Under the pieces are notes generated by a model. The model was not told the DNA's origin. It saw nothing but the letters and a program-made list of their open reading frames with translations, and did not search any database. A stretch of 64,000 bases of DNA from Nitrosopumilus sp. (GTDB lineage Archaea; Thermoproteota; Nitrososphaeria; Nitrososphaerales; Nitrosopumilaceae): assembly GCA_965203315.1 (NCBI GenBank), contig CBDBCE010000004.1, forward strand, positions 1 through 64,000, written 5' to 3'. This document shows positions 1,176 through 36,344 of the stretch, in pieces (the stretch's first letter is position 1; each line of letters starts with the position of its first letter). Made by a program: the position numbers and the translations under genes.

Positions 1176-1344
1176 ATATGTGTGAGACTACTAAATTGGA
1201 GTTTACGCACCTAAACGAATCTGTTGGTGGTGCATCGGAATAGATATTCATATTCATAAGTCTGTCTCGACTATTCTACTTTAATCGCTAGTGTCTGCAA
1301 ACTAGTCAAGCAAGATATAAATGATGTTTGCCAAAATTCCAGTC

Positions 1345-1524
1345 ATGTCGTCTACTATTTCACTACCCACATGTGATTGTTGTAATCGACACATTATGCC
1401 AAACGACAAATGTGTCAAGTTTAATTGTCCTGACTGTGGCAAAAAGCTCATCTGGAGATGTCAGAGTTGTCGAGAGTCAGTTCGATCATATGTCTGCACT
1501 TTATGTAACTTTCATGGACCTTGA
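1345..1524 (+). CDS. Zn-ribbon RNA-binding protein (DUF1610/HVO_2753-like)
   Basis: Four CxxC pairs; IWRCQSCR motif; sits directly upstream of EF-1beta as is usual in archaea. Confidence 0.85.
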   Translation: MSSTISLPTCDCCNRHIMPNDKCVKFNCPDCGKKLIWRCQSCRESVRSYVCTLCNFHGP

Positions 1525-1530
1525 GTAAAC

Positions 1531-1812
1531 ATGGCACAACTATTGTTAATCACAAAGATTCTTCCGCAAGGAATTGAGATCGATCTAGATGCTGTAGCCG
1601 GTGCCATAAAGACCAATCTCAAAGAGGGAATAGTCATGAAGCGACATGTTAAAGAGCCACTTGCTTTTGGATTAGAGTTTCTAAAGGCAGAGTTTATTCT
1701 AGATGACAAAGAAGGTCAGATGGATCTACTAGAAGAGTCGGTACGTTCAACGCCTGGCGTCAGCGAGTTTGAAGTCTTGAACATGAGCCGAATGTCTGTA
1801 GATATGAAGTAG
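1531..1812 (+). CDS. ef1b: Translation elongation factor 1-beta
   Basis: [10 protein letters not shown] motif, 93 aa, synteny. Confidence 0.92.
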
Positions 1813-1820
1813 GTGATTCG

Positions 1821-3992: not shown

Positions 3993-3994
3993 AG

Positions 3995-4291
3995 ATGGCT
4001 ATACCACTACGAAACATAATACTTGACAAGATCAAAGAGGCAGGATCTCTCACCGATGCTGAGCTCTTTAAGATGATCACAAAAGACGATCTAGTGGTAT
4101 CTAGTGCAAAATTTAACAAGATGCTTTTAGATTTGGAGATCTTGGGACTGATCAACGTTACATGGATGACCAAGGACGAAAAGCGAGTAGAGATAGCTGT
4201 GGTGGATAGTAGGGTAGATGATGTTGAGATGGAGAACAAAAAGATGCTAGAGAGAGACTACGAGTCTAGTTTTCCTGGATTTGAAGGATAG
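3995..4291 (+). CDS. Conserved hypothetical protein (winged-helix-like), co-transcribed with cdc48
   Basis: ORF starts 2 nt after cdc48; FNKMLLDLEILGLINV pattern. Confidence 0.7.
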   Translation: MAIPLRNIILDKIKEAGSLTDAELFKMITKDDLVVSSAKFNKMLLDLEILGLINVTWMTKDEKRVEIAVVDSRVDDVEMENKKMLERDYESSFPGFEG

Positions 4292-5179
4292 TTAGTATAG
4301 ATTATAATGAAATGCTGCATCTAGCGCTACTGCTACAAATATTATCGTCAGATATGGTGCAGTAACCTTGTATGCCTTCCAAGCAAACTCGGACGTAGGA
4401 TTGTTTGTGAGTTTGTAATGGTATACGAGCATTAGTGAACCCGACGCTGCTGCAATTATTGTATACACTAGTCCCATACCATCTGGAATGAGTCCCAATA
4501 TCAGCGAATATGGCAGCAGTATTATTGTATTTGCGAGTATATACTTTGACGTCTTGTCCATACCAACCACCACTGGCAGCATTGGGACATTTGCTTGCGC
4601 ATACTCGTCCTTGATCTTCATTGCAAGGCACCAAAAGTGAGATGGCGTCCACACAAAGACCAAAAAGCCTACAAGAAACCCTAATAGATCCATGCTTGCC
4701 GTAGCTGCTGACCAACCGGCCCACGCAGCAGCACTGCCTGCAATTCCACCAATTACGATATTGGATGTGTTTAGTCGTTTTAACCATATCGTATAAATTA
4801 CAACATACGAGAATATGCCTACCGCTATAAAGAATGCCGATACTGGATTTAGTGCAACAAAGCCGTATACGACAGATATGCAACTCAGTATCATACCGTA
4901 CAGCAGTACATGCGTTGCAGATATTCGTCCAGAAGGAATCGGTCTAGTACTGGTTCTACTCATCTTTGGATCGATGTCTCTGTCATAGTAGTGATTGAGT
5001 GCGCTAGAACCTGCTGATGCGAGTGCGCCTGCTACAACTATGTGCAGATATGCCCAATAGTCTAACGGTGGTACATTTGGTACCAACATACTTGCAGCAA
5101 ACATAGAAGTAACTGCTGTTATGACCAACAGAACTACTATGCGTGGCTTTGATATCTCGATCAGTTCTTGGACTCCCAA
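4292..5179 (-). CDS. cyoE: Protoheme IX farnesyltransferase (heme O synthase)
   Basis: UbiA family: NHYYDRDIDPKMSRTSTRPIPSG, WTPSHFW, EYAQANVPMLP. Confidence 0.93.
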   Translation of the reverse strand: MGVQELIEISKPRIVVLLVITAVTSMFAASMLVPNVPPLDYWAYLHIVVAGALASAGSSALNHYYDRDIDPKMSRTSTRPIPSGRISATHVLLYGMILSCISVVYGFVALNPVSAFFIAVGIFSYVVIYTIWLKRLNTSNIVIGGIAGSAAAWAGWSAATASMDLLGFLVGFLVFVWTPSHFWCLAMKIKDEYAQANVPMLPVVVGMDKTSKYILANTIILLPYSLILGLIPDGMGLVYTIIAAASGSLMLVYHYKLTNNPTSEFAWKAYKVTAPYLTIIFVAVALDAAFHYNLY

Positions 5180-5291
5180 TCTGATATCGTCTCTCTTGGA
5201 GGCATTTAATTTGTTTCACTATCTAGAATCATGTGTCTTTGGCACCAAATTTCCAAAGGAATAAGTATATCGCTACTATCGCTACAGTTGT

Positions 5292-6089
5292 ATGAGTAAT
5301 TGGGATCTCATGATGCCAGGTATGGGACTCACTGCCATCGGTTTGGCTGGTCTCACTATATCATATGCAGATATTGCACACACCTTTATTGATGGAATGC
5401 ATGCCTTGACGGGCTTGACCATGTTTATAGGGCTGATTTTTTTGTCCGTCGGAATCTTGGACGGTGGTATCTCGACTAGCAATAGAGCCAAAGCCACAAC
5501 ATTGGTGATACTATCGATCGCATTAGGATTTGGAATGTTTGCGTTTACGATGAATACATCCAACTATACAGTAACACTAGCTGGAATATTGATGGCTATT
5601 GCATTTCCATCCATACTGATCGCATACGTTGCGATGAAACATCCAAAGTTTCTCAAACCTGTGGGATCTATTGCAGGCATTGCAGGCGCTACTGGCATAA
5701 TAGTGTGGGTTGCGTTTGGATTTGTGAGTCCAGATACATATATGATTCCACAAGCTATAGTAGTTCCTGAAGAACCACAAGAGATAGAGGTAGAGATAAT
5801 CGGTGAACTCTTTACAGTTGAGGTGCTCCCCGAATCGTCGATCAGTGGTAACCCTGGATATGATCCCGAAGATATTACCGTTGTACAAGGAGATGGGATC
5901 GAGTGGTTCAACAATGATACACTGGCTCACACTGTGACTAGCTTTGAGGACTTTGGTGAGACATTTGACTCTGGTCTGTTTGATGCAGGCGGGACATATA
6001 CACTAGTAACTACTGAGATGGATCCTATCACGTACGATTACTTTTGTAGCGTTCATCCATGGATGCGAGGAACTATAACGATCGAATAG
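5292..6089 (+). CDS. Membrane-anchored blue copper (cupredoxin) protein
   Basis: About 5 N-terminal TM helices; HTVTS...YDYFCSVHPWM type-1 Cu motif. Confidence 0.9.
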   Translation: MSNWDLMMPGMGLTAIGLAGLTISYADIAHTFIDGMHALTGLTMFIGLIFLSVGILDGGISTSNRAKATTLVILSIALGFGMFAFTMNTSNYTVTLAGILMAIAFPSILIAYVAMKHPKFLKPVGSIAGIAGATGIIVWVAFGFVSPDTYMIPQAIVVPEEPQEIEVEIIGELFTVEVLPESSISGNPGYDPEDITVVQGDGIEWFNNDTLAHTVTSFEDFGETFDSGLFDAGGTYTLVTTEMDPITYDYFCSVHPWMRGTITIE

Positions 6090-6091
6090 TA

Positions 6092-6481
6092 TTGCAACTA
6101 GTAATATCTCCCAAACAGTGTGAACAGTTAAAGCAGCATGCCATGTCCCAAGCACCAAACGAATCATGTGCTCTTTTGTTTTGTCGCGGTGATATCATAC
6201 ATGATATATTTCTAACAGAGAATGTGTTGAACTCGTCGACTAGATTCAGTATATCTCTAGAGCAGTTACGTCTAGCATACAAAATTGCAGAGACACAAAG
6301 TTTTGATACGGTTGCAATATTTCACTCTCATCCAAACTCTATCGCGTATCCGTCAAAGACTGACGAACAGTTTATGTACGTCAATCCTGTTCCGTGGTTG
6401 ATATACTCTGGTGTTACTTGCAAGTTCAAGGCATTTATTCTAGATGTTGACGTATTGGAGATTCCACTTGTTGTATTATAG
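6092..6481 (+). CDS. JAMM/MPN+ (M67) metallopeptidase; start uncertain
   Basis: PNESCA and FHSHP...PSKTD motifs. Confidence 0.88.
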   Translation: MQLVISPKQCEQLKQHAMSQAPNESCALLFCRGDIIHDIFLTENVLNSSTRFSISLEQLRLAYKIAETQSFDTVAIFHSHPNSIAYPSKTDEQFMYVNPVPWLIYSGVTCKFKAFILDVDVLEIPLVVL

Positions 6482-7197
6482 CGTACAAGTGTGATTTGTG
6501 TACTCTTGAGTTCTAGTACAACATATCAACGAAAAATAAGTTTCGACATAAATAACATGATCAAATCTTTATGAATCAAAATGTAAGGATCAAACTTTTT
6601 TTATATTTCAAGATGGAGTTTTTAATTAATCTATATCACAGTTGATCATACTGATTCATTGTTTGTGTCAGGACTCGTTTTTGGCGATATATTTTTTGAC
6701 ACATCTTTTAGCGTAAGTAACTCTAGCAATTCCAGATCTGTTCATTGCAGTTACAATAATCGATATAAAGTATACAGAACTGAGATTTTACCACACTCAC
6801 TATAATTCTCTGATAATGGAATTATCTAACCCAATAACCATTTTATGTAGACGTAATTTTCACAACTTTTCAACTCGTTCTAGTTTTCCTTTACTCTTTT
6901 ATCTCTAGATCTCTCATTTTGGAAATCCTTTAGATCTCTCTATTTCACCTAATTTGCGTAGTTTTGGAATAGATTTTGGGGGCAGGCTGTATTCTAGTTG
7001 GCAATGTAAGCTAGAGTTCAAGATTCTGGTAGACTACTTCAAAGCGGAAACCGATCATCTGGAATGCAGATTACATGTTCTACTCTTTTTGCTCAAAATC
7101 ATCAACTCTGTCAACATTTCAATTTTTTCAAAGTCTGAGATTCTACAGCGCTATAGTGGCGGATACAGTTTATTTATGCCATGGAATTAGGGTTATC

Positions 7198-7455
7198 ATG
7201 GAGATTCATGTATATGATACATACGTCAAGGCAGCTGACGGCCATACGATGCATTTTGATGTAATCACCGGTGAAAAAGACCATGAAAAAGCCATCCAAT
7301 ACGGTAAAGAATGGCTAAAGTCCATTGGTGAAGAGAATGCTACAATAACCCAGAATGAATGCCAATTCTGTCACTCACAAGGTGCCCCAGCTCCAGTTGA
7401 AGAGTCGATCAAGAGAGACGGCTACTTTATACAAAAGATGGAAGGTTGTCCATAA
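7198..7455 (+). CDS. DUF2024 family protein
   Basis: VYDTYV...MHFDV and CQFCHS motifs. Confidence 0.85.
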   Translation: MEIHVYDTYVKAADGHTMHFDVITGEKDHEKAIQYGKEWLKSIGEENATITQNECQFCHSQGAPAPVEESIKRDGYFIQKMEGCP

Positions 7456-7807
7456 TTTTTTAACCATTCTCTTTTTTTAGTTTTGGCAATTTATGGATAT
7501 TATACTTTATCCGATGAATATTTTGAGTTAGTGGTTTGGGATTTGTACATAAACATCTCTCAATCACACTAGTGGTGTGTTTCATTCGTGATTACAAACA
7601 TAATACTGTTATGTGCACATTTACAGCTCACAAACGTTATTGTTCAGATCCATAAATTTCTACAGTTGAGAGTAATGTATCTATTATGCCTAGCGAGAAA
7701 TTATAGACAAACGTAAAGTTAACCATGAGCGTAATTAAAACAGTCATACAAAAGTCTAATAAAAAATCGAACTGGGAAAGTACGTATAATTGATATCTGA
7801 CGTGAGA

Positions 7808-8899
7808 CTATGTGAAAATATCTTCTAGTCTATCCTCATTTTGTGCGCGACGTATCTCCATTGCTATGCGCCTTCCCACGCCAAATGTTGTTCCGTACTG
7901 GTACTTTGTATATGGAGTTGTAGTACCTACTATGGGATTTCCGGGAACACGTAATGATACATCATACACTACTAGATCTAGATCTTTGGTTATCACACTC
8001 TGTAGTGAGAATGGTCCAATTATGCCTGGTGGATACTCTCGTCTCACGGCGTCTACAAACTTTTCTCCCATCTTGAAGACTTTTTCTAAAAGTGACTCTC
8101 TAATACTAGCCGGAGTGTGCCCTACTTCTATATTTTGTATATCTATGTCTATCTGCTCTTGTTGTCTTGCTGGTAGTGCATTATAATCATGAATATTTGT
8201 CTGTAGTCTACGTTCTATGCCAATAAAATCTACATGATCAGATATTGGCGTATGAAAAAAGTTAAAGTTCATGTATGTACCTATTGCGAGTTCTTCAATG
8301 CTTGAATTATCTAGATCACTACGTGATATTGTACCGCTCTTTATCTTCATCTCTGATTGTTCCTTGTATTCCTTGTATGATGAGACTGTAAAGAATGCAC
8401 GTTCTAGTGGTCTGTTCTTCTCTTGGACTTTAACTATGCATGGTTTGTTGATCCTCTTTGGATCTTTTAAGATCTTTGGATACTTTATCTTTGCCTTCTT
8501 TAATAGATAGTACTGTCCCTTTTCTGCTGTTCTCTCTTCGGCCTGAAAGAGTCTTCTGTTACCAAAAATTGGAACTTGAAACGAGTCTTCGATAGTCTTG
8601 TACCCTACATATGCAGTAAGTGCACGATGTGGAATGATTACAGTGCTTGATTCACGCAATTGCTTTTGGATCTTTTGTGATGCAATATCTCGAAATTTAT
8701 CCAAGATCAGTATCTTGTCTGCAATTCTATCAAACCTCTGATATGGTGTCTCTCTTCCTCTTTGACAGATTACTGTAGTTTCAAAGTTCTCATCTTTGGC
8801 GCCATCCATAACTTCCAGTGCAGAGTGACTTCCGAGAACACCTATTCTAAGATCATTATATTTCGACAAGATGTCTCTGATCTTAGACCTTTGTATCAT
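7808..8899 (-). CDS. purP: PurP-like formate--AICAR ligase (ATP-grasp, DUF1246/DUF1297)
   Basis: GSHSAL, PIFGNR, GHTPASIRESLLE, PGIIGPFSLQ, GRRIAMEI. Confidence 0.9.
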   Translation of the reverse strand: MIQRSKIRDILSKYNDLRIGVLGSHSALEVMDGAKDENFETTVICQRGRETPYQRFDRIADKILILDKFRDIASQKIQKQLRESSTVIIPHRALTAYVGYKTIEDSFQVPIFGNRRLFQAEERTAEKGQYYLLKKAKIKYPKILKDPKRINKPCIVKVQEKNRPLERAFFTVSSYKEYKEQSEMKIKSGTISRSDLDNSSIEELAIGTYMNFNFFHTPISDHVDFIGIERRLQTNIHDYNALPARQQEQIDIDIQNIEVGHTPASIRESLLEKVFKMGEKFVDAVRREYPPGIIGPFSLQSVITKDLDLVVYDVSLRVPGNPIVGTTTPYTKYQYGTTFGVGRRIAMEIRRAQNEDRLEDIFT

Positions 8900-9514
8900 G
8901 TCTTGTGATGTGTGTATTGGATATAATATAGCTATTTATGTTTGGTTTAGAAGTATTTTTGTATTTTGCATAATATTTAGCAATTAAAGTGTAATTTAGC
9001 ATAAATGTTCGTGCCCACAACCCTAGGTTTTTGGTTATTTTGTATAGATGATGTAGCAATTGAAAATTTAATTCATATTTTAATTTTTAGATTTGAAAAA
9101 TATTTTTAAAAAATGGAAACAACATAGTTGCATATCAAAGATTCAAAAACACACTTTATCGATTGTAATGGAAAGACCTTGTTGCAGCAGTGAACACAAA
9201 CATGTTAATTCAATACTACAGTAATGTATTAAACAAGATCAAAAAACAAAATGAGATGGAATTAGGTGCAGAGTATATTGAATTAATAGATAATCTGTAC
9301 AGAAATAAGATCAAATTACACAATGGTATGACGTTAGGTCAACATATCGTTTAGGCACGAAAGATAAACTTTTTATCAAAGATCATGCATGACATCTATG
9401 ACAATCTAACATCATACCAATCCTTGTGGTGTTTCATCTTTTGAGCTAGCATCTTACAAATCACAGTATGTATAATACAAAAAGTATATATAATGATTCA
9501 ACATTATTATTATT

Positions 9515-9885
9515 ATGTCTGCTGTTATCATGACCGGTCAAAATGATCAATACGAATATCCGTCACCCCGACGTACTAATCTAGATCATATAAATGGGTA
9601 TTTGATCGAACTTGTCAAGTACAAAGAAATTAAATTAGAATCTAGACCATTGAATCATCTGATCCTTGTGTCCAAGACATTCAGATAGATTATGCAGTGT
9701 TTAATCCTGTGTATGTAGAAAAACTTGATGATGATGAAGAACAGGTAATGTATGACTCAAATTATATGATTTTAAATAAACCGTATCATGTAGTTTGGAA
9801 TGGGAGGGACTTTTGGTTTATGAAAACCGAGTCTGGTTTAGAAGGATACAGAAATAATCCTGTGGGGCCTAAGCATGAAATTTAA
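9515..9885 (+). pseudogene. Hypothetical gene, possibly frameshifted (ORFs 9515-9688 and 9697-9885)
   Basis: ATG ORF stops at 9688; a different frame continues to 9885; AT-rich island. Confidence 0.35.
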
Positions 9886-10078
9886 AGCATCATTGCGGGA
9901 TCTTTCTATGGAACTCGAAACAGACAAAAACACTATTCATGAGTTTCGACCATGTCGGGGTATTTTATATGAAGAGAAGAGACTACTTCGTGATTCTATC
10001 ATCTATATAATTCATATGGGCAAAAATGGAAAACCTACTCGTCGTGAATTGAAGGTGAAAAATAATGTTAGCGCTTGA
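9875..10078 (+). CDS. Hypothetical protein
   Basis: Overlaps neighbours by 11-14 nt in an operon-like arrangement. Confidence 0.5.
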   Translation: MKFKASLRDLSMELETDKNTIHEFRPCRGILYEEKRLLRDSIIYIIHMGKNGKPTRRELKVKNNVSA

Positions 10079-10514
10079 TGAACCAACTAATCAAATTACA
10101 AATATGGGGTATATTGAAACTATTCCTCTTAAACCAATAATCCCTAGTTTTTACAAACTTGAAGACGGTACAATTATAAGCGTATTATGTAAACTCACTC
10201 ACATACTAAAAGCCAGTACTGGTACAAAACATATGAATTTAATAATTAATGATGAGGTTCATGTCTTCGTGCCTCCTGAAAAACGGATAGTACCTAACAA
10301 AATGTCAAAAAACCCCGACAATATTATTAGTAAAGATGTTACACATGTCCCAATAAAAGAAGAGTTTAATGTCTATGACATAAACGCCGACTTTACAATT
10401 AATGTTAAAACATTAGTGAGTCAAGTTGTTAAAACAAATCAAACCAATTTACGGGGAGAGCCAATTTATAAAGTGAATTTACACCCACTTATACAAATTA
10501 AACAAAAAGAATAA
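10065..10514 (+). CDS. Hypothetical protein with internal duplicated beta-rich motif
   Basis: 149 aa; YKLEDGTII / EEFNVYDINADFTINVK halves, ends GEPIY. Confidence 0.65.
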   Translation: MLALDEPTNQITNMGYIETIPLKPIIPSFYKLEDGTIISVLCKLTHILKASTGTKHMNLIINDEVHVFVPPEKRIVPNKMSKNPDNIISKDVTHVPIKEEFNVYDINADFTINVKTLVSQVVKTNQTNLRGEPIYKVNLHPLIQIKQKE

Positions 10515-10622
10515 TTTAGTTAGGCGATTACGTACATGTCTCCGCCGTGGTGCTCAGAAAAATAACTCTGGTCAAATTTTCTTAACACTGCATTGTATTG
10601 CTCAATTTCTATACAGAATACC

Positions 10623-11016
10623 ATGGTTCAAAAATACGAAGATCTCTTTCAGGCCTACAGAAGCAGTGAACGCAAACAGATACGTGATAAGATCATAGAT
10701 ATAAAGATGGTTTTGATTCACAAACACACAAAAGTACATGCGGCAGAAATCTTTGAGGTTAACGAACTAACAATTTACACTTGGATCAACAAGTACGACA
10801 AATATGGAATTATGGGTCTAAAAGACCAACCTCGTTCTGAAAGACCACCAAAAGTATCAGATGAAATACTCGAAAAGTTGATGGATGAACAAAAACCTAT
10901 ATTTCCGTTAGAGATGAAAAACATAGTCAAAAAAAAAAAGAGACAGGGTAGACTATCATGGAGATGGTTTACAATACAGGATGAAAAATCTTGATCGATC
11001 TCCCAAAGTTGTTTAA
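10623..11016 (+). pseudogene. IS630-family transposase N-terminal HTH remnant
   Basis: AAEIFEVNELTIYTWINKYDKYGIMGLKDQPRSERPPK is typical of the IS630 HTH; frame breaks after an A11 run; no DDE domain. Confidence 0.75.
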
Positions 11017-11018
11017 AC

Positions 11019-11131
11019 GAATCTCTTAGGTTTACGTGGTGTGGTATTTCACAAGACTCTTTCTGTATTTCCATTATGGGATCTTGTAGTGTTTTCTGTA
11101 ACCTTTCTATCCCACGTAAACCAAAAGATCC
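11019..11131. repeat. ~110-bp MITE-like palindromic dispersed repeat, copy A
   Basis: Terminal IR atctcttaggtttacgtgg / ccacgtaaaccaaaagat; similar to 34874, 55611 and 59181. Confidence 0.6.
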
Positions 11132-11206
11132 AAACGATTTTTTGTACTACACGAGATCCAAATAATCAAGTAAACGATATATCTACAAAACATCCGAGAT
11201 AAGTAG

Positions 11207-12277
11207 ATGCGTGCCCTAGTTTATGATAAGTATAGTTTTGATGATGACTATGCCAAGATTCTAAATGTAGTTGATATTCCCGAACCGGAACCAGGTCCTG
11301 GAGAGGTAGTCTTTACCGTACGCGCAGCTGCTCTCAATTATGACGATATATGGGGAATGCGTGGCAAGCCTCTTGCTGTACCGTTACCACATATCTCTGG
11401 GACAGATGCTGCAGGTGAGGTCACTGCAGTGGGCAGTGATGTCCAAAATATCAAAGTGGGAGATCGAGTAGTATCTCATGGAAACATCTCTTGTCGAATA
11501 TGTAGAAATTGTACGTCTGGACGTGAGTTTGACTGTAGATCTAGAATGATCTGGGGATTTGAGACCGGTCCTCTCTGGGGCGGATACTGTGAAAAGACTC
11601 ATCTACCTGAAGTAAACGTAGTCAAGATTCCGGACAATATATCCTACGAGTCAGCTGCTGCGGCATCTATGACTTTATTGACTTCATGGCACATGCTGGT
11701 TGGTCGAGCAGAGATACGGCCTGGTCAAGTCATCTTGATAATGGGTGGTGGCTCTGGAGTGGGCAATTATGGAATACAGATAGCCAAACTCTTTGGTTGT
11801 ACTGTTATTGCTACTGCCAGCTCTGACAAACTAGATCAATGTATGCATCTTGGGGCAGACTATGCTGTGGATCATAGAAAGGATGACTGGCACAGTGCTG
11901 TACGCAGTATTGCAAAGAATATTCCGAAACCATATGGAGGCGTACGTGGAGTTGACGTCATCTTTGAGCATATTGGTGGTTCACATTGGAACAAAGGGCT
12001 TACACTACTCAACTATGGCGGAACCATAGTTACGACAGGTGCCACAACTGGATATGATGCATACACTGATCTACGTCATATATTCTTCAAAGGAATCAAT
12101 ATCTTTGGATCCACTCAAGGGACACGTGCTGAATTGGAGCAAGGTCTCTACTGGATGTCTCAAGGAAAGATACGATCTGTTATCGACTCTGAATATACAC
12201 TAGATCAAGCTGCTCTAGCTCATACGAGGATGCTAAGAGGTAAAGGCGTATTTGGCAAGATAATAATCAGACCATAA
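11207..12277 (+). CDS. Zinc-binding MDR family dehydrogenase/reductase
   Basis: CRICRNC...C Zn site; GGGSGVG NADPH motif; FGKIII C-terminus. Confidence 0.9.
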   Translation: MRALVYDKYSFDDDYAKILNVVDIPEPEPGPGEVVFTVRAAALNYDDIWGMRGKPLAVPLPHISGTDAAGEVTAVGSDVQNIKVGDRVVSHGNISCRICRNCTSGREFDCRSRMIWGFETGPLWGGYCEKTHLPEVNVVKIPDNISYESAAAASMTLLTSWHMLVGRAEIRPGQVILIMGGGSGVGNYGIQIAKLFGCTVIATASSDKLDQCMHLGADYAVDHRKDDWHSAVRSIAKNIPKPYGGVRGVDVIFEHIGGSHWNKGLTLLNYGGTIVTTGATTGYDAYTDLRHIFFKGINIFGSTQGTRAELEQGLYWMSQGKIRSVIDSEYTLDQAALAHTRMLRGKGVFGKIIIRP

Positions 12278-12552
12278 ACAAGAGTTATCTTGAAAGTTAA
12301 ATCTATGGCAAATCACCCATCTGATATCATCTTGACACAAAATCTTGATCGCATGACCAGTTCTTATGTAATGCGGAGAGTCACTTATCTGATATTCAAA
12401 GAGTTAGGATAGATACCCACAGTTTGACATGCAATAACAATGATAGTGTACGAGTTTACATCAATTGACGATATACGTGTAGAATGTGAATTCGTGTGAA
12501 GGTTGGACGAATCAAAAATACGATGCAATGTGCTAGAAAAGAAACGTCTACG

Positions 12553-12580
12553 TGAACAAATTGTTCATTAGGCTTAAATA
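12553..12580 (+). promoter_or_regulatory. S-layer promoter copy 1 (palindrome TGAACAAATTGTTCA + TTAAATA box), facing the 3' end of its inverted gene
   Basis: Same sequence as found directly upstream of the S-layer ATGs at 36372 and 50345. Confidence 0.85.
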
Positions 12581-12581
12581 C

Positions 12582-12609
12582 AAACTATTGATGTGAATAT
12601 CAATAACAT
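12582..12609 (+). repeat. Putative recombination site, locus 1 left: AAACTATTGAT-GTGAAT-ATCAATAACAT
   Basis: Inverted relative to 17725-17752; one of six homologous sites. Confidence 0.85.
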
Positions 12610-12824
12610 GTATAATTGTACAGGTTGTACAAGTGCTTGTAAAGTTATCTGACATGACCTTTTACAGTCTATTAGTCTACGTACCTACTTCACATCTCTT
12701 GTATCAAGTATCTTGTGAATGAGTAATATTGTATAATGCAAGAGTCAAGAATGAAGGAGTAGAGATCATCGTATATTGTCATTGACACTGTATGTAGATA
12801 TCACTATGCATAGTTGTATCATAT

Positions 12825-12840
12825 AAAAAAAGAAAAAAAA
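12825..12840 (-). terminator. Oligo-T terminator of S-layer gene 1
   Basis: T8-C-T7 on the minus strand, 9 nt after the stop codon. Confidence 0.7.
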
Positions 12841-12848
12841 GGTTTGAA

Positions 12849-15800
12849 CTAGTTTACAGTTATTGTTGTTGTCTGTTGTGGAGATAGTGCAGTTGGTATA
12901 GTCAACGACTCCCATGCAAATACGGTAATTGTGTATTCACCGGATGCTGTTGGTATCCAAGACTGAGATGGACTAAACGACTGAGATGGTGTTAGTGAAC
13001 CATCAATCCAAGACAGAGATACTGTAACGCCATCGCTATCTTGAATTTGTACCAAGTATGCAAATGGCTGGTCTTTGTCTTGTGTGTTTGTCAAATCTGC
13101 AGTGATCTGGACTTGTTGATCTATTGATACTGTACTGAGTGTTGTACCTGTAGAGTCTACTATTCTCAACGACTCGATCTTTACTCGTTCTAGAGGAGGT
13201 ACTATTGTTCCTATTATGGTGGTTGCAGTGATGTCTTCAGAGTCGCCTGTATTGTATGGAGCAGGTAGAGTGTTGTCGCTGTACTTTGCAGTGACTGTGT
13301 CTCCTTCTTCTGTGGATAGTTTGTGACCGCCTGATTGGACAGAGAGTCCAAAGAATACAGTACCTTCAAAGATACCACTTGCTGGTTGAGTCTCTGTTAC
13401 TGTAAGGGTTATTCCACTAGGTGCACTAGAAGACCATACTTTGACCTCAAAGTTGTCTGCAGATTCTGGATTCAAGTTCATGTCGGGATCGATTACACGT
13501 AGTACGCCTGTAGCTGTAGCAGGATAACTTGCTTCTAGCCACTGAACCTCACCAATGTTCCAACGGATTAGAGCAGACTTGCGAACAGTCTCTTCGTCAG
13601 AGAACTCGAATGATACCTCGAGTCCGTCGTCGTTGTCTGTTGGTAATAGTCCATCGGTTGGTCCTTTACAGCTATCACATGTACGACCTGTGACGTCTTT
13701 ACCGTTCTCTCCTGTGGAATCATCACCGTCTGCGTCGTACGAGAATCCTGTCAGTATTACTTCACCTGTAAAGATACCAGTGTTTGTACCTGTCTCTACG
13801 AGTTTGTAGTTTTTAATGTCGTCGGATCTTGTAGCAACACGCACTGGATATGGATCCGCACCAATCTCGTCTACTTGGTTTGTGTTTAGGTTGTGATCAG
13901 GAGCTGTTACAGTAATGAATACCTTGTCGGTCCAACTGTATACGCTTTGATCTAGTTCTATTGTAGCACCAAAGTTTGATGTGAATACCGTTCTGTCGAT
14001 ATCTTCTGTATTATCACCTACAAAGTCTGCACCTGATGGTCCATAGTCGGTGTATTCTAGCTTGATCTCTTCACCACGCTCTAGTCTGTCGTTGTCTATG
14101 GCCTTGGGAACAGATATGACCACTTGGAAGATACCTGTGCTAGGACCAGTCTCTCGTAGAGAACCTGGTTCTGCATCGAATATACCTTCACTCAGATTCT
14201 TGGTACCTGCGTCCGAGTCCCACTTTATCAGATCAAGTGTGTATGTTTCGCGTGTACCGCTGTCTAGATCAAGGTCTGGATCGATGAGTGTTACGATCAT
14301 GTCCGAGCCTATCACATATACAGACTTGTCTGTCTGTAGAGCACCGTTTCGTAGATCAAAGGTAGCAGAGTCTGTGACTGTACGTGGGTTACCAGAAGCA
14401 TCTGTTGTATCGTTGTACTGTACGGTAAGGATATCACCTTGTAGGATGCATGTACGGCTTGTTGTACCGTCAGCTATTGTTCTACTTGGACAGTCACTGC
14501 CACTTGGCCCATCTATGTAAGATAGATCAAAGCTTACTTCGAACACTCCAGATTCAGGAGATGTCTCTGTTAGAGCACCAAACTTTGCTGGCTCTGGACA
14601 TTCACCACCACTATCTCGTGCATTAGTGTACTTTAACTCTGCCAAGAGATATGCTGTCTGTTTCGTTGTCTTTTCAGCGTCTGTAGCATCAGTATATGCC
14701 TGTAGTGCATCATCTCGTATCTGTTTTAACTTGCTGATTGCATCGCTTGCGTTTGAATCTTCGCCACCAGCATGACCTATTGCACACTCGTCACCACTGC
14801 GAGAGATCGTGACCTTTACTGGACCATTTCCGTCCTCGTCTTCGATCTTGTCCTCACCTGTAGGATTCAAGTTGTAATCTGGGTCGTTTACTTGAACATA
14901 GACTTTGACTGTACCTAGTGGAAGAGGTTCAGGAGGATTCTTCATGTCCAAGAATCCTGAAGAGCCTGGGTCTGTATCAGTGCCGTATGGAACTGGATAT
15001 ACAGTTCTATCTAGCGATACAGAGCCTGTACTTGCACCAATCGATGCAGAGTCACCAGCTGTGACTATCTGACCAGATGCATCTCTAAAGTCTAGATATG
15101 TTACGCCAATATCTTTGCCGCTTGTAGGTGTGTTAGGGTTTCTCGTGTTTACTGTATCGTCGTCATTAAAGTTGCATACTTGTTTTGGTATAGAAAATGA
15201 ACCTGTAAAGACTCCTGTACTGGATCCGGTCTCTTGTAGAGTGAATCCGGTTTTAGCGAGTCCGTTCTGAATGTTATTATCTAGGTCACATGCGCCAGAT
15301 TTCCATCTCTCACCACCAATGGTTACTTCGAGTAGCATTCCTAGTGATTTGCCACCTGGTAGTAGAGACTTGTACTTGATACCAGCTACATTGGTTACAC
15401 TCATGCCTACTTGATCTCTATCTGTGTCATTGTGGTTACTGTCCATCACTACCGTATAGGTATCAGCACGATCAGGATCTGTATTCAGATCAGAGTCCTC
15501 TAGTGTGATTACGACATTGCTGCCTACACTGTATGTCTCTGCGTTCAGAGATACCACACCACTAGAGGTTGCGATATCTTGTTGATCAGAGACCACAGCC
15601 ATGTTGCCGTTCGAGTCTATGTCTGCATAGTTTACTCGAGCATCAGAGCCTGTAATGTCCTCAAAGGCGATGAATTTGACTTCGTTGCCTATTGGGGTGA
15701 TGCTTTCGTATATGAAACCAGTTTTGATTAATTGCTTAGCTTCATTTTCAACGAATTGGTCATGTACCATAACATCAAGTTGGTTTACCATAACGTACTC

Positions 15801-17726
15801 TAGCGTTCCTGTAAAGGTGCTGGTGTTCTCGCCAGTCTCTTCTACCTCGACTCGTATAATCTGGTTTGCAACTCTCTCATCTGCTTGTGCACCATCATTA
15901 TAGAACCCATAGGAGAAGAAATCTGAAACTATTGGATATTCCTCGCCTCCTACAAATTTAAAGGGACTTGGGAAGTGTAGTGATAGTAGAAGTGGTGTAT
16001 TATCGTCTACGTTGACTTTATTTGATAGTTCTGCACCGGATATTGAAAAGTATGCACCCATATACCCACCACCACCAGCGGAATGAGCAGCTTGGACACC
16101 CCACGATGTCATGTCTCTGAGGTCATTAGTAAGAGAGTATGGGAAATCATTATTAGTAGAGCCCTTAAGAGATGCACCATAAATCACATTCCTGTCATTG
16201 TCGAGTAAGACAAGAGTGCCATCTATGCCATCTATACCAAAGATACTATAATCATAGTTGAATAGATTGCGACCTGTAAAGTTACCAACGCCGTTAAGCC
16301 CATCGTCATTGATTGATTTACGAAGATCTCCAAAAGTACCGAATGGAATAGCAACCGTGTTGACAGTAGTATTAGTAGCGACTGATATGATACCTCGGTG
16401 ACTATCATCGACGGTGTAATTTAGTACGTATATGCCACTTTGACTGGAATCTGTCGAATATGTTGGAGTGTTAATCGATCCAGTATTGTATCCATAGATT
16501 GTAATTGTATCAGTAGAACTGACACCGTCCTTTAGTGTATGTGGATCACCCGTCATGAATATTGGAATTCTTGCGTCTGGATTGGTTATCGTTTGATCGT
16601 CTTCTGCATCACTGTTGAGGTTTTGATCTGCATCGACTATGGTTAGGTCTATCTTTTCACCAGAGTTCCATGTACCGTCCTTGATATCGAGGTCTACTGT
16701 AGCAGTTGTGAGTCGTACGTTTACAGATACAGTTTCATCACTATACGTGATTTGAGTATTTTGACCGCGTGGTGCATTATCTTGAACCATTATGGGAGAC
16801 TTGTCATCGTTGGTGATGGTAAATACGCCCGTGTTCGGACCAGTCTCTTCAAAGATGTAATTTGTAGTACCCGATTCTAGTTGTAGTAGATCATTAGTGT
16901 CACTAGATCCTATGTCATCTATGCTAAAGCTACACTTGTCATCTTTACAACCAAGATTGGTACTAGTTGGCATGATCGGTCGCTTTTCAGATTCACGAAT
17001 CTTGCTAGAATTATTATCGTACATGTATGTTGGAACACCACCATCTACTGCATATCTCCAGACATCTTTAGTTGTCGGATCTATGTTTAGTATATGGTCA
17101 GTTATCTTTACGTGTACGTGAGAGTTTCTCGGATATGATGTTCTGTCTAGTGTAAGATCATTGTTTACAGAGTCATCATATGTGATCGATATTGTTTGTG
17201 GCGATCCAGCCTTGTGATACACTATGTTAAAGGTATCATCGAGTTCAAAAGACTTTACTATATCAGTGGCGTTTCCAGTCTTCTCGCCAATAGTAATGCC
17301 TGCTTGCCTAACGATATTTTTCACTTTAGGCTGACCATCATCAGTAGAATGCCACAAATTCTGGGCATCGTCAAATGAAGGAGTATTGCCATCAGGATCA
17401 TCAACCGCTCTAAAGTACCCATACCAATTGCCATCAGTGTGTCTATGCATCTTTAGCGTTGTGTCATCAACAGTTACACGAGGCTCAGCATCGTCTGCAT
17501 CACGGATCAACGGATCATTTACAATTACTTGCACTATCTGTAGTCCACCAAAGGTGTTCTCGAACCTAGAGCCATATCCATTTGGATCAGCAGCTGAGAC
17601 GTATAGGTTTGGTGTCGACTGGGCGTAAACTGGCTCCATGCTCGGCATAGCAAAGGTCAGTCCGCCTGCGACCATTATTGTCATTAGTATTAAACTAGTT
17701 GTTTTTCGTCCTATTTCGTTATTCAT
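12849..17726 (-). CDS. S-layer protein paralog 1 (SlaA-like, 1625 aa)
   Basis: Signal peptide MNNEIGRKTTSLILMTIMVAGGLTFA; repeated ETGxNTGxF motifs; C-terminal QSFSPSQSWIPT...FAWES, as in Nitrosopumilus S-layer proteins; true start is the ATG at 17726. Confidence 0.9.
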   Translation of the reverse strand: MNNEIGRKTTSLILMTIMVAGGLTFAMPSMEPVYAQSTPNLYVSAADPNGYGSRFENTFGGLQIVQVIVNDPLIRDADDAEPRVTVDDTTLKMHRHTDGNWYGYFRAVDDPDGNTPSFDDAQNLWHSTDDGQPKVKNIVRQAGITIGEKTGNATDIVKSFELDDTFNIVYHKAGSPQTISITYDDSVNNDLTLDRTSYPRNSHVHVKITDHILNIDPTTKDVWRYAVDGGVPTYMYDNNSSKIRESEKRPIMPTSTNLGCKDDKCSFSIDDIGSSDTNDLLQLESGTTNYIFEETGPNTGVFTITNDDKSPIMVQDNAPRGQNTQITYSDETVSVNVRLTTATVDLDIKDGTWNSGEKIDLTIVDADQNLNSDAEDDQTITNPDARIPIFMTGDPHTLKDGVSSTDTITIYGYNTGSINTPTYSTDSSQSGIYVLNYTVDDSHRGIISVATNTTVNTVAIPFGTFGDLRKSINDDGLNGVGNFTGRNLFNYDYSIFGIDGIDGTLVLLDNDRNVIYGASLKGSTNNDFPYSLTNDLRDMTSWGVQAAHSAGGGGYMGAYFSISGAELSNKVNVDDNTPLLLSLHFPSPFKFVGGEEYPIVSDFFSYGFYNDGAQADERVANQIIRVEVEETGENTSTFTGTLEYVMVNQLDVMVHDQFVENEAKQLIKTGFIYESITPIGNEVKFIAFEDITGSDARVNYADIDSNGNMAVVSDQQDIATSSGVVSLNAETYSVGSNVVITLEDSDLNTDPDRADTYTVVMDSNHNDTDRDQVGMSVTNVAGIKYKSLLPGGKSLGMLLEVTIGGERWKSGACDLDNNIQNGLAKTGFTLQETGSSTGVFTGSFSIPKQVCNFNDDDTVNTRNPNTPTSGKDIGVTYLDFRDASGQIVTAGDSASIGASTGSVSLDRTVYPVPYGTDTDPGSSGFLDMKNPPEPLPLGTVKVYVQVNDPDYNLNPTGEDKIEDEDGNGPVKVTISRSGDECAIGHAGGEDSNASDAISKLKQIRDDALQAYTDATDAEKTTKQTAYLLAELKYTNARDSGGECPEPAKFGALTETSPESGVFEVSFDLSYIDGPSGSDCPSRTIADGTTSRTCILQGDILTVQYNDTTDASGNPRTVTDSATFDLRNGALQTDKSVYVIGSDMIVTLIDPDLDLDSGTRETYTLDLIKWDSDAGTKNLSEGIFDAEPGSLRETGPSTGIFQVVISVPKAIDNDRLERGEEIKLEYTDYGPSGADFVGDNTEDIDRTVFTSNFGATIELDQSVYSWTDKVFITVTAPDHNLNTNQVDEIGADPYPVRVATRSDDIKNYKLVETGTNTGIFTGEVILTGFSYDADGDDSTGENGKDVTGRTCDSCKGPTDGLLPTDNDDGLEVSFEFSDEETVRKSALIRWNIGEVQWLEASYPATATGVLRVIDPDMNLNPESADNFEVKVWSSSAPSGITLTVTETQPASGIFEGTVFFGLSVQSGGHKLSTEEGDTVTAKYSDNTLPAPYNTGDSEDITATTIIGTIVPPLERVKIESLRIVDSTGTTLSTVSIDQQVQITADLTNTQDKDQPFAYLVQIQDSDGVTVSLSWIDGSLTPSQSFSPSQSWIPTASGEYTITVFAWESLTIPTALSPQQTTTITVN

Positions 17727-17752
17727 GTTATTGATATTCCAATCAATAATTT
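17725..17752 (-). repeat. Putative recombination site, locus 1 right: AAATTATTGAT-TGGAAT-ATCAATAACAT
   Basis: Overlaps the start codon; followed on + by gcaaat, like the right flank of locus 3. Confidence 0.85.
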
Positions 17753-18117
17753 GCAAATGATTGAAAGATACACATCTAACGATATGTGTTGAAGCAACAA
17801 ATCAAACAGATTTCAGTCTCGACTATTGCATTGTCATCTTGTCTTGAAATATGGCAGAAACTTTGAATTACGCAATATTTTACTATATAATTCTGATCTC
17901 TATTAATTCAAGTCTTAGATGTAACATCTTCACAACATCCACAATATTTGTCAGACCAACGCTTTGACGAATTAGTAGTTTGGAGGATCAGTACAGAAAC
18001 ATTGCATTAGGATATGCCTGTTACAAAGTTTCATGTCTTTTCATAGGATGGAGCCTAGTACGTTGCATACATTAGAACGGTTGAATTATATACAAAAATC
18101 GGTGATCAAAAGCTAAC

Positions 18118-18492
18118 TTGGTAGGCGAGCTGGCAGGCAACTATAGTGTTATAGTGTTAATGTTTGGTTTTGCATGTGCAGCCATGGCTCCTGCTTTACT
18201 CGTATCTAGAATGATCTCTCCCAGAAAACATAGTAACCCTGTAAAGTTTCTTCCAATGGAATGTGGTCAAGTGCCTAGTGGTGCAGGACGTACTCACTTT
18301 ATGATGCAATATTATCCCTATATCTTGATGTTTGTAATATTTGACGTAATGGCGATCTTTCTATATGCATGGGGTACGGCACTCTTTGAGATACCAAAGG
18401 CAGCTACACTCCCAATGATGGGTTTCTTGGCAATAATGTTTGGAGCCATGGCATTTGCATTATATCAATCTGGAAAGCGACGAATATGGTAG
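18118..18492 (+). CDS. nuoA: NADH-quinone oxidoreductase subunit A
   Basis: PMECGQ, YILMFVIFDV motifs. Confidence 0.93.
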   Translation: MVGELAGNYSVIVLMFGFACAAMAPALLVSRMISPRKHSNPVKFLPMECGQVPSGAGRTHFMMQYYPYILMFVIFDVMAIFLYAWGTALFEIPKAATLPMMGFLAIMFGAMAFALYQSGKRRIW

Positions 18493-18532
18493 TTATTTAT
18501 ACAAAGAACTCGTATGGTAATAGGAGATAAAA

Positions 18533-20777: not shown

Positions 20778-22476
20778 GTATGAGGTTAGGTCTCACGCAC
20801 AACTTTTAGGAGTGTATCATAGACGTTGAGACCTTGTTGCTCCCATGTTGTTACACATGTAAAGATATTGCCAACTCGTCGTTTACTCTCCTCAGATACG
20901 ATACGTTGAGTTACCTTGCGGAATAGCACCATTGATCGTATAGCTCGCTCTGCTCTGTTGTTTGTGTATTCCATACCATAGTATAGCACAAATGTGTATA
21001 GATCATCTGCAGCATTAGCTAAATGAACTCCAAATTTGCGACAAGCTTCGTTGTCTAGTTTCTTGTACTCTGCTGCAAGTGATAATGTCTTTTGCACTAG
21101 ATCATCTACTCTGTATTTTAGGTATATGTCCACATGATTGGGATTGTCCACCTGTAGTGCTTTTGCAATTTCAAGTAGTTTCTGTAATCTTTTGTACATT
21201 AGTACAGTATGTACGTCACACATTGTATCTTTTGCATTTCGCAGTATGTGCGCCCAACAACGTTGCCGTACATTGAATAGTTTGTACACGACATATCCAT
21301 CCGACACGAGTGGTATCAGAATATACTTTTTGAACGTTTTTTCTAGAAAATCTTTTGTACGCTCTGGCGATATGATGAATTGCGTACCATAATCGCCGAC
21401 AAGAACCCAGACCCATCCCAATTTCGCAGCAAGGGACATCGACGTCTCATCCATGTAGATTACCTTGGATTTTAGGTTCATTCTCTCTATTTTTTTGACA
21501 TATTTGTCTAATTTATCGGCAATCGTGTCTATTGCCCCCGTTACCATCTTTTTAGATATACACGGGTCTAGGCATTGAAGAGTACTAGTTATTGTTCTGA
21601 TACTACAGCCATTCTTTCTCATTATGGTTGCAATCACGCCTAGAATTGGGCACAACATTGTGTTGTGTAGTATGTCTGGGATGCTGTCGAATGTATCGCC
21701 TGATGCGCCACAATCTCTACAGTTGTAAAAGTATCCGATATGGAGTATGTGCAATATTATGATCTGTATGTCAATCGTTCTCTTTTGTCTAGACCTCTTG
21801 TTGTCAACATGCTTACTGCCACATCCATCACACTTTTCTTTTTTATGATGTCTTGTCTTGTCTGTTTTTATGTTGTCGGAAACTCCTTTGTGACCCTTGT
21901 CTTGTCCTGCTTTTTTCCATTCGCTTTTAGATTTTCTTGTACCCTTTTTTACATGATCTGGTTGTTTTGATGAGGGTACGTTAGAATTGTCGAGCTGCTT
22001 GCGTCTCGTTTCTTTGTTCTTGGCCTGTGCTGTTTGTACCTCTATCTTTTCTTTTTTACCCTCTATCTTTTTTCTGGTGTTACGAATCTTGGTCTGTGAT
22101 AGTTGTTGACCACGTTCTATAATTTTGATCATCCTTTGGAATACATTAAAACAATCATTGATTGAATTTGGAGATACTTGGAGTCCCATAATTGTAGCAA
22201 GTAAAATCTCGTACAGTTTCATATTCATTCTCTTCTGCTTTGCAACTTGTTTTTGTAGACTCGTAATGGTCTCTTGTTGTTGTTCGATGGTATCATTTTG
22301 CTGCTTGACAGTATCCTCTAGATCTGCTATCTTGGCAGATGTCTCCCTATCTTTCTTGGTAGTCTTTTGTCTCGCGATCTGTCTAGACATTGTCATAATT
22401 GGTAGTATTTGGATTTAGCCTAGATTATCTAGAAAAGTTGTCCCTTTGGGTAGATCTTTTAGACCTAACCTCGTAC
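20778..22476 (-). mobile_element. IS66-family element (single-ORF, ISBst12-like), 1699 bp
   Basis: TIRs GTATGAGGTTAGGTCT / revcomp GTACGAGGTTAGGTCT; 8-bp TSD CATAATTA at 20770-20777 and 22477-22484. Confidence 0.9.
20786..22396 (-). CDS. IS66 family transposase
   Basis: Coiled coil, NSNVPSS, GQDKGHKG, CxxC...CxxC Zn finger, MDET, SDGY..Y, QRCWAH, TNNRAERAIR. Confidence 0.92.
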   Translation of the reverse strand: MTMSRQIARQKTTKKDRETSAKIADLEDTVKQQNDTIEQQQETITSLQKQVAKQKRMNMKLYEILLATIMGLQVSPNSINDCFNVFQRMIKIIERGQQLSQTKIRNTRKKIEGKKEKIEVQTAQAKNKETRRKQLDNSNVPSSKQPDHVKKGTRKSKSEWKKAGQDKGHKGVSDNIKTDKTRHHKKEKCDGCGSKHVDNKRSRQKRTIDIQIIILHILHIGYFYNCRDCGASGDTFDSIPDILHNTMLCPILGVIATIMRKNGCSIRTITSTLQCLDPCISKKMVTGAIDTIADKLDKYVKKIERMNLKSKVIYMDETSMSLAAKLGWVWVLVGDYGTQFIISPERTKDFLEKTFKKYILIPLVSDGYVVYKLFNVRQRCWAHILRNAKDTMCDVHTVLMYKRLQKLLEIAKALQVDNPNHVDIYLKYRVDDLVQKTLSLAAEYKKLDNEACRKFGVHLANAADDLYTFVLYYGMEYTNNRAERAIRSMVLFRKVTQRIVSEESKRRVGNIFTCVTTWEQQGLNVYDTLLKVVRET

Positions 22477-36315: not shown

Positions 36316-36344
36316 ATGAACAAATTGTTCATTAGGGTTAAATA
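36316..36344 (+). promoter_or_regulatory. S-layer promoter copy 2 (palindrome ATGAACAAATTGTTCAT + TTAAATA)
   Basis: TTAAATA at -34..-28 from the ATG, consistent with a leaderless transcript. Confidence 0.85.

Follow-up and report, generated by a model that had tools for sequence, protein, structure and literature searches.

An S-layer (surface-layer) protein gene near the start of contig CBDBCE010000004.1 (C5) of Nitrosopumilus sp., assembly GCA_965203315.1, is almost certainly inverted relative to its ancestral arrangement and uncoupled from its promoter. The locus, here called locus 1, probably belongs, as one cassette among several, to a DNA-inversion system acting on S-layer genes at multiple loci of this ammonia-oxidising archaeon. 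The stretch analysed, referred to as the window, comprises the first 64 kb of C5 (positions 1-64,000, forward strand), and the archaeal genome (G000) amounts to 2.47 Mb in 7 contigs. Three long paralogous open reading frames (ORFs) are found in the window, at 12849-17726 (minus strand), 36372-41276 (plus strand) and 50345-55210 (plus strand), at loci 1, 2 and 3, respectively. In the following, a locus is termed ON if its promoter directly precedes the gene, and OFF if the promoter faces the gene's 3' trailer. The features of locus 1, and its two ON counterparts in the window, are:

12553-12567, plus strand: perfect palindrome TGAACAAATTGTTCA upstream of the TATA box, a likely transcription-factor site
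12574-12580, plus strand: TATA-like box TTAAATA, at -34 to -28 from the repeat's ATG, facing the 3' trailer
12581-12615, no strand: left arm (promoter side) of the inverted-repeat pair of locus 1
12596-12610, plus strand: invariant core of 15 nucleotides (nt), AATATCAATAACATG, which includes the ATG and probably the transcription start
12608-12652, plus strand: putative 14-codon Cys-rich mini-ORF MYNCTGCTSACKVI, starting from the repeat's ATG in the OFF orientation
12611-12848, minus strand: conserved 3' trailer of gene 1, inside the invertible segment (sequence comparison)
12825-12840, minus strand: runs of eight and seven T (T8 and T7) right after the stop codon, a likely terminator (sequence)
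12849-17726, minus strand: S-layer protein paralogue 1, 1625 residues, intact, with a signal peptide (ORF and paralogue alignment)
17719-17753, no strand: right arm (promoter-less side) of locus 1, with its core at 17724-17738
17754-17760, minus strand: TCATTTG in the place of the TATA box of the ON loci (sequence)
36318-41565, plus strand: locus 2, ON, in the order promoter, repeat, gene (36372-41276), trailer, repeat; arms 100% complementary
50291-55479, plus strand: locus 3, ON, in the order promoter, repeat, gene (50345-55210), trailer, repeat

The inverted state of locus 1 is apparent from the order of its parts. A first-pass annotation had placed the promoter of loci 2 and 3 at 12553-12580, next to the trailer of gene 1 and facing the end of the gene. 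This proved correct: 12553-12580 reads TGAACAAATTGTTCATTAGGCTTAAATA, the same promoter block directly precedes the ATG at 36372 and at 50345, and in locus 1 the repeat comes next and after it, in reverse complement, a 3' trailer that is 98.3% identical to that of locus 3. At the actual start of gene 1 (17726, minus strand) the TATA position, 17754-17760, reads TCATTTG as had been claimed, and the outer sequence at 17742-17758, atcaataatttgcaaat, corresponds to atcaatagtttgcaaat in the right flank of locus 3. Alignment of locus 1 (12500-17850) to loci 2 and 3 supports the further claim that the flanks are in standard order and the interior alone is reversed, with only the outer few dozen bases aligning forward. 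When 12611-17723 was reverse-complemented in silico, all blocks of locus 1 followed the direction and order of loci 2 and 3, in agreement with the colinearity that had been predicted. The breakpoints were correctly placed in the repeats, but these sites measure 34-35 bp, of which 15 nt form an invariant core, and not 28 bp. At the level of sequence, orientation thus sets the coupling of promoter and gene at locus 1, and gene 1 would be OFF in its present orientation.

The arms were located by an inverted-repeat search of the window. Those of locus 1 (12581-12615 and 17719-17753) are 35 nt long with 89% identity, those of locus 2 (36346-36379 and 41532-41565) 34 nt with 100%, and those of locus 3 (50318-50352 and 55445-55479) 35 nt with 91%. 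All include the ATG and first codons of the S-layer gene. Loci 1 and 3 have the core AATATCAATAACATG in their arms, and locus 2 has it with one base changed. With at most one mismatch, the core ATATCAATAACATG occurs 7 times in the window against 0.12 expected, and 6 of the 7 occurrences are the six arms. In the whole genome a 12-nt core occurs 19 times, 18 of them at S-layer loci (two of the 18 belong to a second copy of locus 1 on contig C1), and the repeat with its 15-nt core is present at both ends of seven loci, while the sequence just outside has diverged. Within the arm of locus 1 lies a dyad, TATTGAT, 6 nt, ATCAATA, by its layout a putative recombinase core site; the arms of the cassette E857k are without the TTGAT left half-site. 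An exact pattern scan for other carriers of the site returned 0 matches in metagenome_contigs and one chance match in genome_contigs (a Legionellales metagenome-assembled genome), a scan set that did not contain the genome itself.

The 6-nt spacer adjoining ATCAATAACATG is locus-specific, and at five of the seven two-armed loci it is identical in both arms. Between loci, spacers match in 1 of 84 arm pairs, and five matched loci were reached in 7 of 100000 shuffles; if the C5 version of locus 1 is used, matched loci number four of seven. The arms of a locus therefore exchange information or are selected to match. Tyrosine recombinases need identical overlap regions in their partner sites, and their cores consist of inverted half-sites around 6-8 bp. 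Matched, locus-specific spacers recall this requirement.

S-layer-type genes number about 12 in the genome, as judged by mapping of promoter, gene start, gene end and trailer. The same promoter is present at eight loci, three ON and five OFF, and seven of these have two arms. No neighbouring genes are common to the flanks of the loci; outside the arms they have only the 28-67 nt of the promoter in common. Four of the five OFF genes are intact, with ORFs of 1613-1627 residues. The loci are as follows (L1 to L3 are loci 1 to 3 of the window):

L2, L3 and C1:825953-831058 (D825k): ON, two arms
L1, C1:205732-211071, C1:792770-797985 and C1:857747-862979 (E857k): OFF, two arms
C1:1804924-1810530 (F1804k): OFF, eighth promoter locus, with the promoter against the trailer at one end, the other end rearranged and the ORF broken at codon 137
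C1:1845k (G1845k): no two-armed switch; 1675 residues, a promoter-like flank with CAAAATA as TATA box, no 3' arm
C6:25.1k: no two-armed switch; broken
C4 copy: no two-armed switch; interrupted by an insertion sequence (IS)
C1:742k: no two-armed switch; divergent copy

Maximum-likelihood trees were built from the seven two-armed cassettes, leaving out F1804k, G1845k and the C6, C4 and 742k copies, which have an arm missing or are themselves broken. ON and OFF cassettes are interleaved in these trees, and two sister pairs combine opposite states (L1-OFF with D825k-ON, and L3-ON with E857k-OFF). The tree of the whole segment implies three changes of state, all three forced by well-supported branches, and at least two are required by such branches in each of the 5' and 3' partitions.

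The ancestral arrangement can be read from other members of the genus. A 33-nt block, GAACAAATTGTTCATTAGG(C/G)TTAAATACAAACT, consisting of the perfect palindrome and then the TATA-like box, occurs three times in the window against 0 expected. Its palindrome also stands before loci 2 and 3 (36317-36331 and 50290-50304), and the TATA-like box lies at the same distance before the ATG in loci 2 and 3 and in S-layer genes of the same genus. From this position and conservation, TTAAATA would be part of the promoter. A query of promoter and gene start found a match in 90 of 150 other same-genus genomes, mostly as a single match spanning both, and in 14 of 24 genomes of an earlier draw. In seven of eight fetched single-copy loci the same promoter directly precedes the S-layer gene, which encodes 1525-1803 residues (the eighth, L019, is outside the count). 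Seven more loci (four of genome G162, two of G157 and one of G163) have the promoter before the ATG in 7 of 7 cases; one of them, L031, has a broken ORF. No inverted copy of the start region was found in the 1.5-1.8 kb downstream at these 14 relatives' loci, where the best agreement, 19-25 of 39-41 positions, is that of chance.

Judged by this distribution, promoter followed by gene is the ancestral arrangement. Locus 1 must hence have turned round. The 3' repeat arm looks like an innovation of this genome that spread with the gene family. The promoter-less flank resembles a degenerate inverted copy of the promoter (CAATTTGCAAACT vs TTAAATACAAACT, and closer at two loci, CAAAATACAAACT), which suggests that the 3' arm arose when part of the promoter and start region was copied in inverted form. 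The palindrome reads GAACAA.TTGTTC here and GGACAA(A/T)T(C/T)GTCC in the relatives; both half-sites have changed symmetrically, as if the palindrome and its binding protein had changed together.

No Pfam domains were detected in the three paralogous ORFs. The locus 3 protein matches chain A of PDB 8C8K with E=0 and 1183.7 bits (query residues 190-1620 vs chain residues 230-1733). According to passages of its structural description, 8C8K is the S-layer protein NmSLP of Nitrosopumilus maritimus (Nmar_1547), which has a second S-layer paralogue of 91% identity in the same organism (PMC11153153). The window proteins resemble NmSLP in homology over most of their length, in a signal peptide, which starts MNNEIGRKTTSLILMTIMVAGGLTFA in all copies (recognised by eye), and in the promoter and 5' end conserved in the genus. 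They are thus clear homologues of NmSLP. This genome differs from N. maritimus and other relatives in having about 12 copies rather than 1-4, a hypervariable N-terminal half, and inverted repeats that are present at 0 of the 14 relatives' loci.

Among the eight full-length paralogues the signal peptide is nearly identical and the last ~500 residues are 95-100% identical, whereas residues ~100-750 are only 18-40% identical in 50-column windows. The same structural description, as far as its passages go, places N-terminal domains 1, 2 and 4 of NmSLP outermost and glycosylated and the ninth domain, at the C-terminal end, as a base near the membrane; the S-layer is also described as gathering ammonium (PMC11153153). 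Because the paralogues differ mainly in the N-terminal part, the outermost in NmSLP, flipping of cassettes would change the cell surface. By analogy, a variable outside on a constant base, in several switchable copies, is the pattern of surface variation against viruses; bacterial phase-variable S-layers offer a comparison (PMC4611039, PMC12548429). On the strand opposite each of the three S-layer genes, in a matching relative position, is an ORF of 148-156 residues: 14050-14520 (plus strand), 39620-40075 (minus strand) and 53563-54009 (minus strand). These ORFs are probably a by-product of the conserved sense frame.

These observations can be combined in one proposed mechanism. A cassette would run from the ATG through the gene, its 3' trailer and its terminator, ~5.1 kb in all, between 34-35-bp inverted repeats, the repeat being an apparent inverted copy of the gene's own 5' end, from just past the TATA box to codon 3. 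The presumed strong promoter (palindromic operator and TATA box) would stay outside one arm, the other flank being a promoter look-alike with a ruined TATA box. Recombination between the arms would flip the whole gene. In the ON orientation of loci 2 and 3 the promoter would read the gene; in the OFF orientation of locus 1 it would read the trailer, antisense to the gene. Flipping of different cassettes would alter the cell surface, most plausibly for escape from viruses. That the cassettes are working, reversible whole-gene switches is in our judgement a likely reading, and the points for and against it are considered below.

The promoter of an OFF locus may have a product of its own. Given a TATA box at -34 to -28, the spacing that is usual in archaea between box and start would put the start of transcription within the core. 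The OFF transcript of locus 1 would then, as far as its sequence indicates, start like the S-layer mRNA and run antisense into the trailer. It would contain the mini-ORF, which is also found at 41506-41550 and 55419-55463 (both minus strand). A 14-codon ORF is present at six of eight trailer-side arms, in two variants, MYNCTGCTSACKVI or M[NY]NCT[GC]C[AT]MCLCKV, that are related by compensating indels. The mini-ORF overlaps a hairpin, TTGTACA-GGT-TGTACAA, which changes to TTGCACA/TGTGCAA. A consensus fold of four trailer-side arms gave a weak hairpin with one compensatory pair, which is unconvincing, and a search of 12000-18500 against Rfam gave 0 matches at E<=1. No conservation of the small trailer ORFs was found. 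In the antisense direction the first run of five T (T5) comes ~1200 nt in, at the same place in 8 of 8 cassettes. As there is no earlier T5, and the paralogues have a 3' region of 95-100% identity, an antisense transcript covering that region is possible.

A possible enzyme is less easily named. Two tyrosine recombinase genes (PF00589) are present in the genome, at C1:1467141-1468766 and C1:412103-413644, encoding ~545 residues (540-550), and neither has a tRNA gene beside it. One of them lies in a suggestive position. The upstream neighbour of S-layer genes in relatives (ThiF/ThiS-like, 4 of 5 flanks) maps to C1:1464589-1465560, and the downstream neighbour (5 of 5 flanks) to C1:36440-37354. 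After the ThiF-like gene in this genome (L035, C1:1464250-1471700) come genes for a NERD nuclease, a 542-residue tyrosine recombinase, and HerA-like and NurA-like proteins, a stretch resembling an inserted island, and nothing of an S-layer gene remains beside the ThiF-like gene there. One tyrosine recombinase would then occupy the former place of the ancestral S-layer gene. Since the same family occurs in several copies in relatives that have no repeats, it is a candidate enzyme and no more.

Mobile elements are unlikely as the source of the cassettes. The IS110-like enzymes (PF01548, 14 copies) have an insertion target, GGTTCTT/TTAACTTAAC-polyG (the slash marking the insertion point), unrelated to the repeat, and we read the position of one copy ~450 bp from the C1:792.8k cassette as coincidence. 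The ends of four IS families are unlike the repeat, which argues against an IS or transposon with terminal inverted repeats, and the segment holds an S-layer gene and small non-conserved ORFs with no transposase inside.

Several observations weigh against a working switch. No recombinase was found in the 64-kb window by Pfam, an IS66 transposase apart, nor any recombinase-like match to the unannotated window ORFs in NCBIfam, and serine recombinase profiles had 0 matches in the genome (PF00239 and PF07508). Both tyrosine recombinase genes lie far from the cassettes, and their family is patchy, with several copies in 7 of 24 same-genus genomes without the repeats. The spacers are mismatched at three loci, including locus 1 as it stands in this contig. 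The topologies of the 5' and 3' partition trees differ, which indicates mosaicism, and gene conversion between cassettes could therefore mimic part of the interleaving of states without any inversion. The flank opposite the promoter may also provide a weak start. The overlap of C1 and C5 at this locus, described below, could be an assembler artefact or a real duplication. Finally, 7 public runs from 3 studies contain the stretch as short-read contigs, and in the four compared with the window (X1, X3, X4 and X5, from all 3 studies) the Logan contigs end at 12582 and restart at 12588 or 12596 and at 17719 or 17724, without joints across the repeats. These breaks are due to the shared promoter and core sequence and are hence uninformative on orientation. 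Loose contig ends at 17732-17753 match other paralogues, namely the promoter flank at C1:831011, the arm at C1:857766 and a poly-G promoter. In run X3, 8 loose letters, CTGTACAA, corresponding to the trailer end, stand before the right arm at 17719 and are too short to interpret; if this end continued into the flank found here, it would be a junction absent from the assembly.

One alternative is that the OFF loci are fossils, left by rare RadA accidents between 35-bp repeats, and that their genes form a silent archive whose members are at most gene-conversion donors, and not switches. We consider this possible, although on the unlikely side. The failure of window and genome profile searches to find a dedicated recombinase is in its favour, as is the mosaicism of the paralogues. 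The 95-100% identity of the last ~500 residues is what frequent gene conversion predicts, homogenisation of the arms within a locus is also expected from heteroduplex repair, and two copies are broken (F1804k and C6) and one carries an IS (C4). It explains less well why four of five OFF genes keep intact 4.9-kb ORFs, or why the repeat and its invariant core are kept at both ends of seven loci while the sequence outside diverges. The repeat arm is moreover found at none of the 14 relatives' loci and thus looks like a specific innovation, and the internal dyad of the arm appears to have the form of a recombinase core site. If the cassettes do invert, two agents account for the data about equally well, namely a site-specific enzyme and general homologous recombination between 35-bp repeats in which heteroduplex repair makes the arms alike. 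Within an inversion system we give the two roughly even odds. That a dedicated site-specific recombinase is the enzyme is accordingly put forward only tentatively. A different possibility, which we regard as quite unlikely, is that flipped loci are re-wired rather than OFF, the gene being read from a weak promoter in the other flank while the strong promoter produces either the 14-residue Cys-rich peptide or an antisense transcript, at least 1.2 kb long and covering the conserved 3' part, that possibly pairs with mRNAs of ON paralogues. The resemblance of the other flank to a degenerate promoter copy speaks for it, together with the retention of 14 codons in six of eight arms despite the indel between the variants, and the late antisense T5 in all eight cassettes compared with T8 and T7 right after the stop in the sense direction. 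Set against these points, the mini-ORF has a frameshift in locus 2, and in F1804k it is read through. A hairpin could also be formed by these bases, whose conservation therefore need not mean coding, and Rfam gave no match.

A 5.1-kb interior misoriented by the assembler, because of the many near-identical paralogues, is extremely improbable. C1 and C5 do start at the same base and share 17.7 kb at this locus, and the paralogues have long stretches of 95-100% identity in common. But the junction of promoter and trailer is also found at four other loci with different flanks in the 1.94-Mb contig, the unique variable region of locus 1 is joined unbroken to both arms, and contigs of run X1 cover, without differences, its unique flanks and the starts of trailer and gene, the core itself being unbridged. 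We therefore retain the reading of locus 1 as one cassette of an inversion system. Inverted repeats bound the segment, as in invertons, and the genome has seven such two-armed loci; the site-specific recombinase that usually lies near an inverton was not found. Coexistence of both orientations is hinted at indirectly, by the branch of C1 and C5 inside the arm and by the presence of three ON and five OFF paralogous loci, and the contigs of the four runs gave no joints across the repeats. Locus 1 is therefore described as working like an inverton and not as a proven member of the class.

A fuller version of the inversion reading would run as follows, although as a whole it is improbable. At least seven cassettes would flip independently at cores of half-site, 6-nt spacer and half-site, with locus-private spacers acting like heterospecific lox or FRT sites to allow inversion within a locus and no rearrangement between loci. 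The enzyme would be an archaeal invertase that has so far escaped recognition, and might be either of the two tyrosine recombinases. The promoter of an OFF cassette would make a leaderless 14-residue Cys-rich peptide, an antisense RNA against the shared 3' region, or both, and poly-G tracts between TATA box and start would be a second switch on other copies. Such tracts belong to a second promoter type, seen at two broken S-layer copies (C1:1810529 and C6:25086), in which G9 and G11 separate a TATA-like box from the ATG. In the genome as a whole (39% G+C), poly-G/C tracts of 9-17 nt number 38, and most of them follow the TATA-like boxes of repeated 5' elements at 5-6 nt. They look like slipped-strand phase variation of archaeal promoters, with homopolymer errors of long reads as another possible source.

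Locus 1 is carried by two contigs. C1 (1.94 Mb) and C5 (342 kb) have the same first base and 17.7 kb in common. Their identity extends from 1 to 17739 and is lost from 17740 on, within the right-arm spacer of locus 1; the overlap is listed as window 1-17756 = G000:C1:1-17756. The two halves of an H+-pyrophosphatase gene lie one at each end of C1, so that C1 closes on itself, and C5 holds unique essential genes. The spacer of locus 1 is GTGAAT in both arms on C1, and TGGAAT in the right arm on C5, a spacer that the C1:831011 cassette has in its promoter arm. The branch fits two joins at the right arm of locus 1 in the sequenced population, but also an assembly artefact or a real duplication, and the differing spacer of C5 may stem from recombination between loci, population heterogeneity or an assembly artefact.

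Other genes in the window include, by Pfam, Cdc48, ABCE1, TYW2, PurP and plastocyanin-like proteins. The genome is unusually IS-rich for its genus, with at least 9 near-identical copies of an IS66-family element (536-residue transposase) and at least 10 copies of a 1.54-kb IS. IS copies lie in the window at 20778-22476 and 63530-64000, the latter continuing to C5:65062. A 142-nt repeat resembling a miniature inverted-repeat transposable element has dozens of copies in the genome. The end of contig C2 carries a tandem array (C2:4424-7434) with a period of ~188 nt and ~16 copies of 90-93% identity. Partial copies of the S-layer promoter block, with no S-layer gene nearby, are present at C5:289119-289162 and C1:1600413-1600456.

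Known systems share parts of this design. In the sap system of Campylobacter fetus one promoter-bearing segment inverts between opposed cassettes, with several hundred bp of 5' homology and in a RecA-dependent manner. Both sap and the present loci are S-layer gene families with conserved ends, whose expression is, or here would be, changed by DNA inversion. Unlike in C. fetus, each of the eight loci here has a fixed promoter outside the invertible segment, the gene would flip between 35-bp repeats, and the host is an archaeon; eight loci with their own outside promoters rule out a single invertible promoter segment of the sap type. The vsa, vsp and vpma systems of Mycoplasma have one expression site, many promoter-less genes and an adjacent gene for a Xer-like recombinase. 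There, as proposed here, inversion at ~30-bp sites at the 5' end of surface-protein genes couples and uncouples a promoter, but the present genome has eight promoters, and no recombinase gene adjoins them. Mu Gin, R64 Rci and Moraxella Piv are examples of gene-altering inversions and shufflons. Such systems, as outlined in a study of programmed inversions, share with the present loci a fixed promoter, coding sequence inside the segment and a repeat that overlaps the coding start; they swap 3' parts of genes, whereas here the alternative would be a 14-codon ORF and the outcome ON or OFF, over several loci (PMC9881135).

Invertible promoters of bacteria include those of the phase-variable S-layer of Bacteroides thetaiotaomicron (PMC4611039) and the cwpV switch of C. 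difficile (PMC2784873). Bacterial invertons resemble the cassettes in their short inverted repeats, in ON and OFF states set by orientation, in their surface proteins and in the context of phage defence; they flip a small promoter or leader segment, whereas here the promoter is fixed and a whole gene of 5.1 kb would flip. A long-read screen of 42 archaeal data sets (36 Euryarchaeota and 6 Crenarchaeota) yielded 12 putative invertons, mostly intergenic, and described archaeal invertons as "only minimally investigated" (PMC10028968). These too are invertible DNA flanked by inverted repeats, and the main-text passages of that report name no ammonia oxidiser and no S-layer gene (PMC10028968). A full-text literature search found no reports of S-layer gene inversion in ammonia-oxidising archaea. 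What sets the present form apart is that the promoter stays fixed, that the entire gene of 5.1 kb would flip at its own start codon, that there would be one switch for each paralogue, and that no recombinase is linked.

Bet-hedging by programmed inversion is classic in bacteria, and the S-layer is the whole cell wall of ammonia-oxidising archaea. If the cassettes flip, they would constitute a natural multi-locus archaeal switch with a simple read-out by polymerase chain reaction or long reads. They would also give a handle on an archaeal invertase, and a way to test which S-layer domains are used by viruses.

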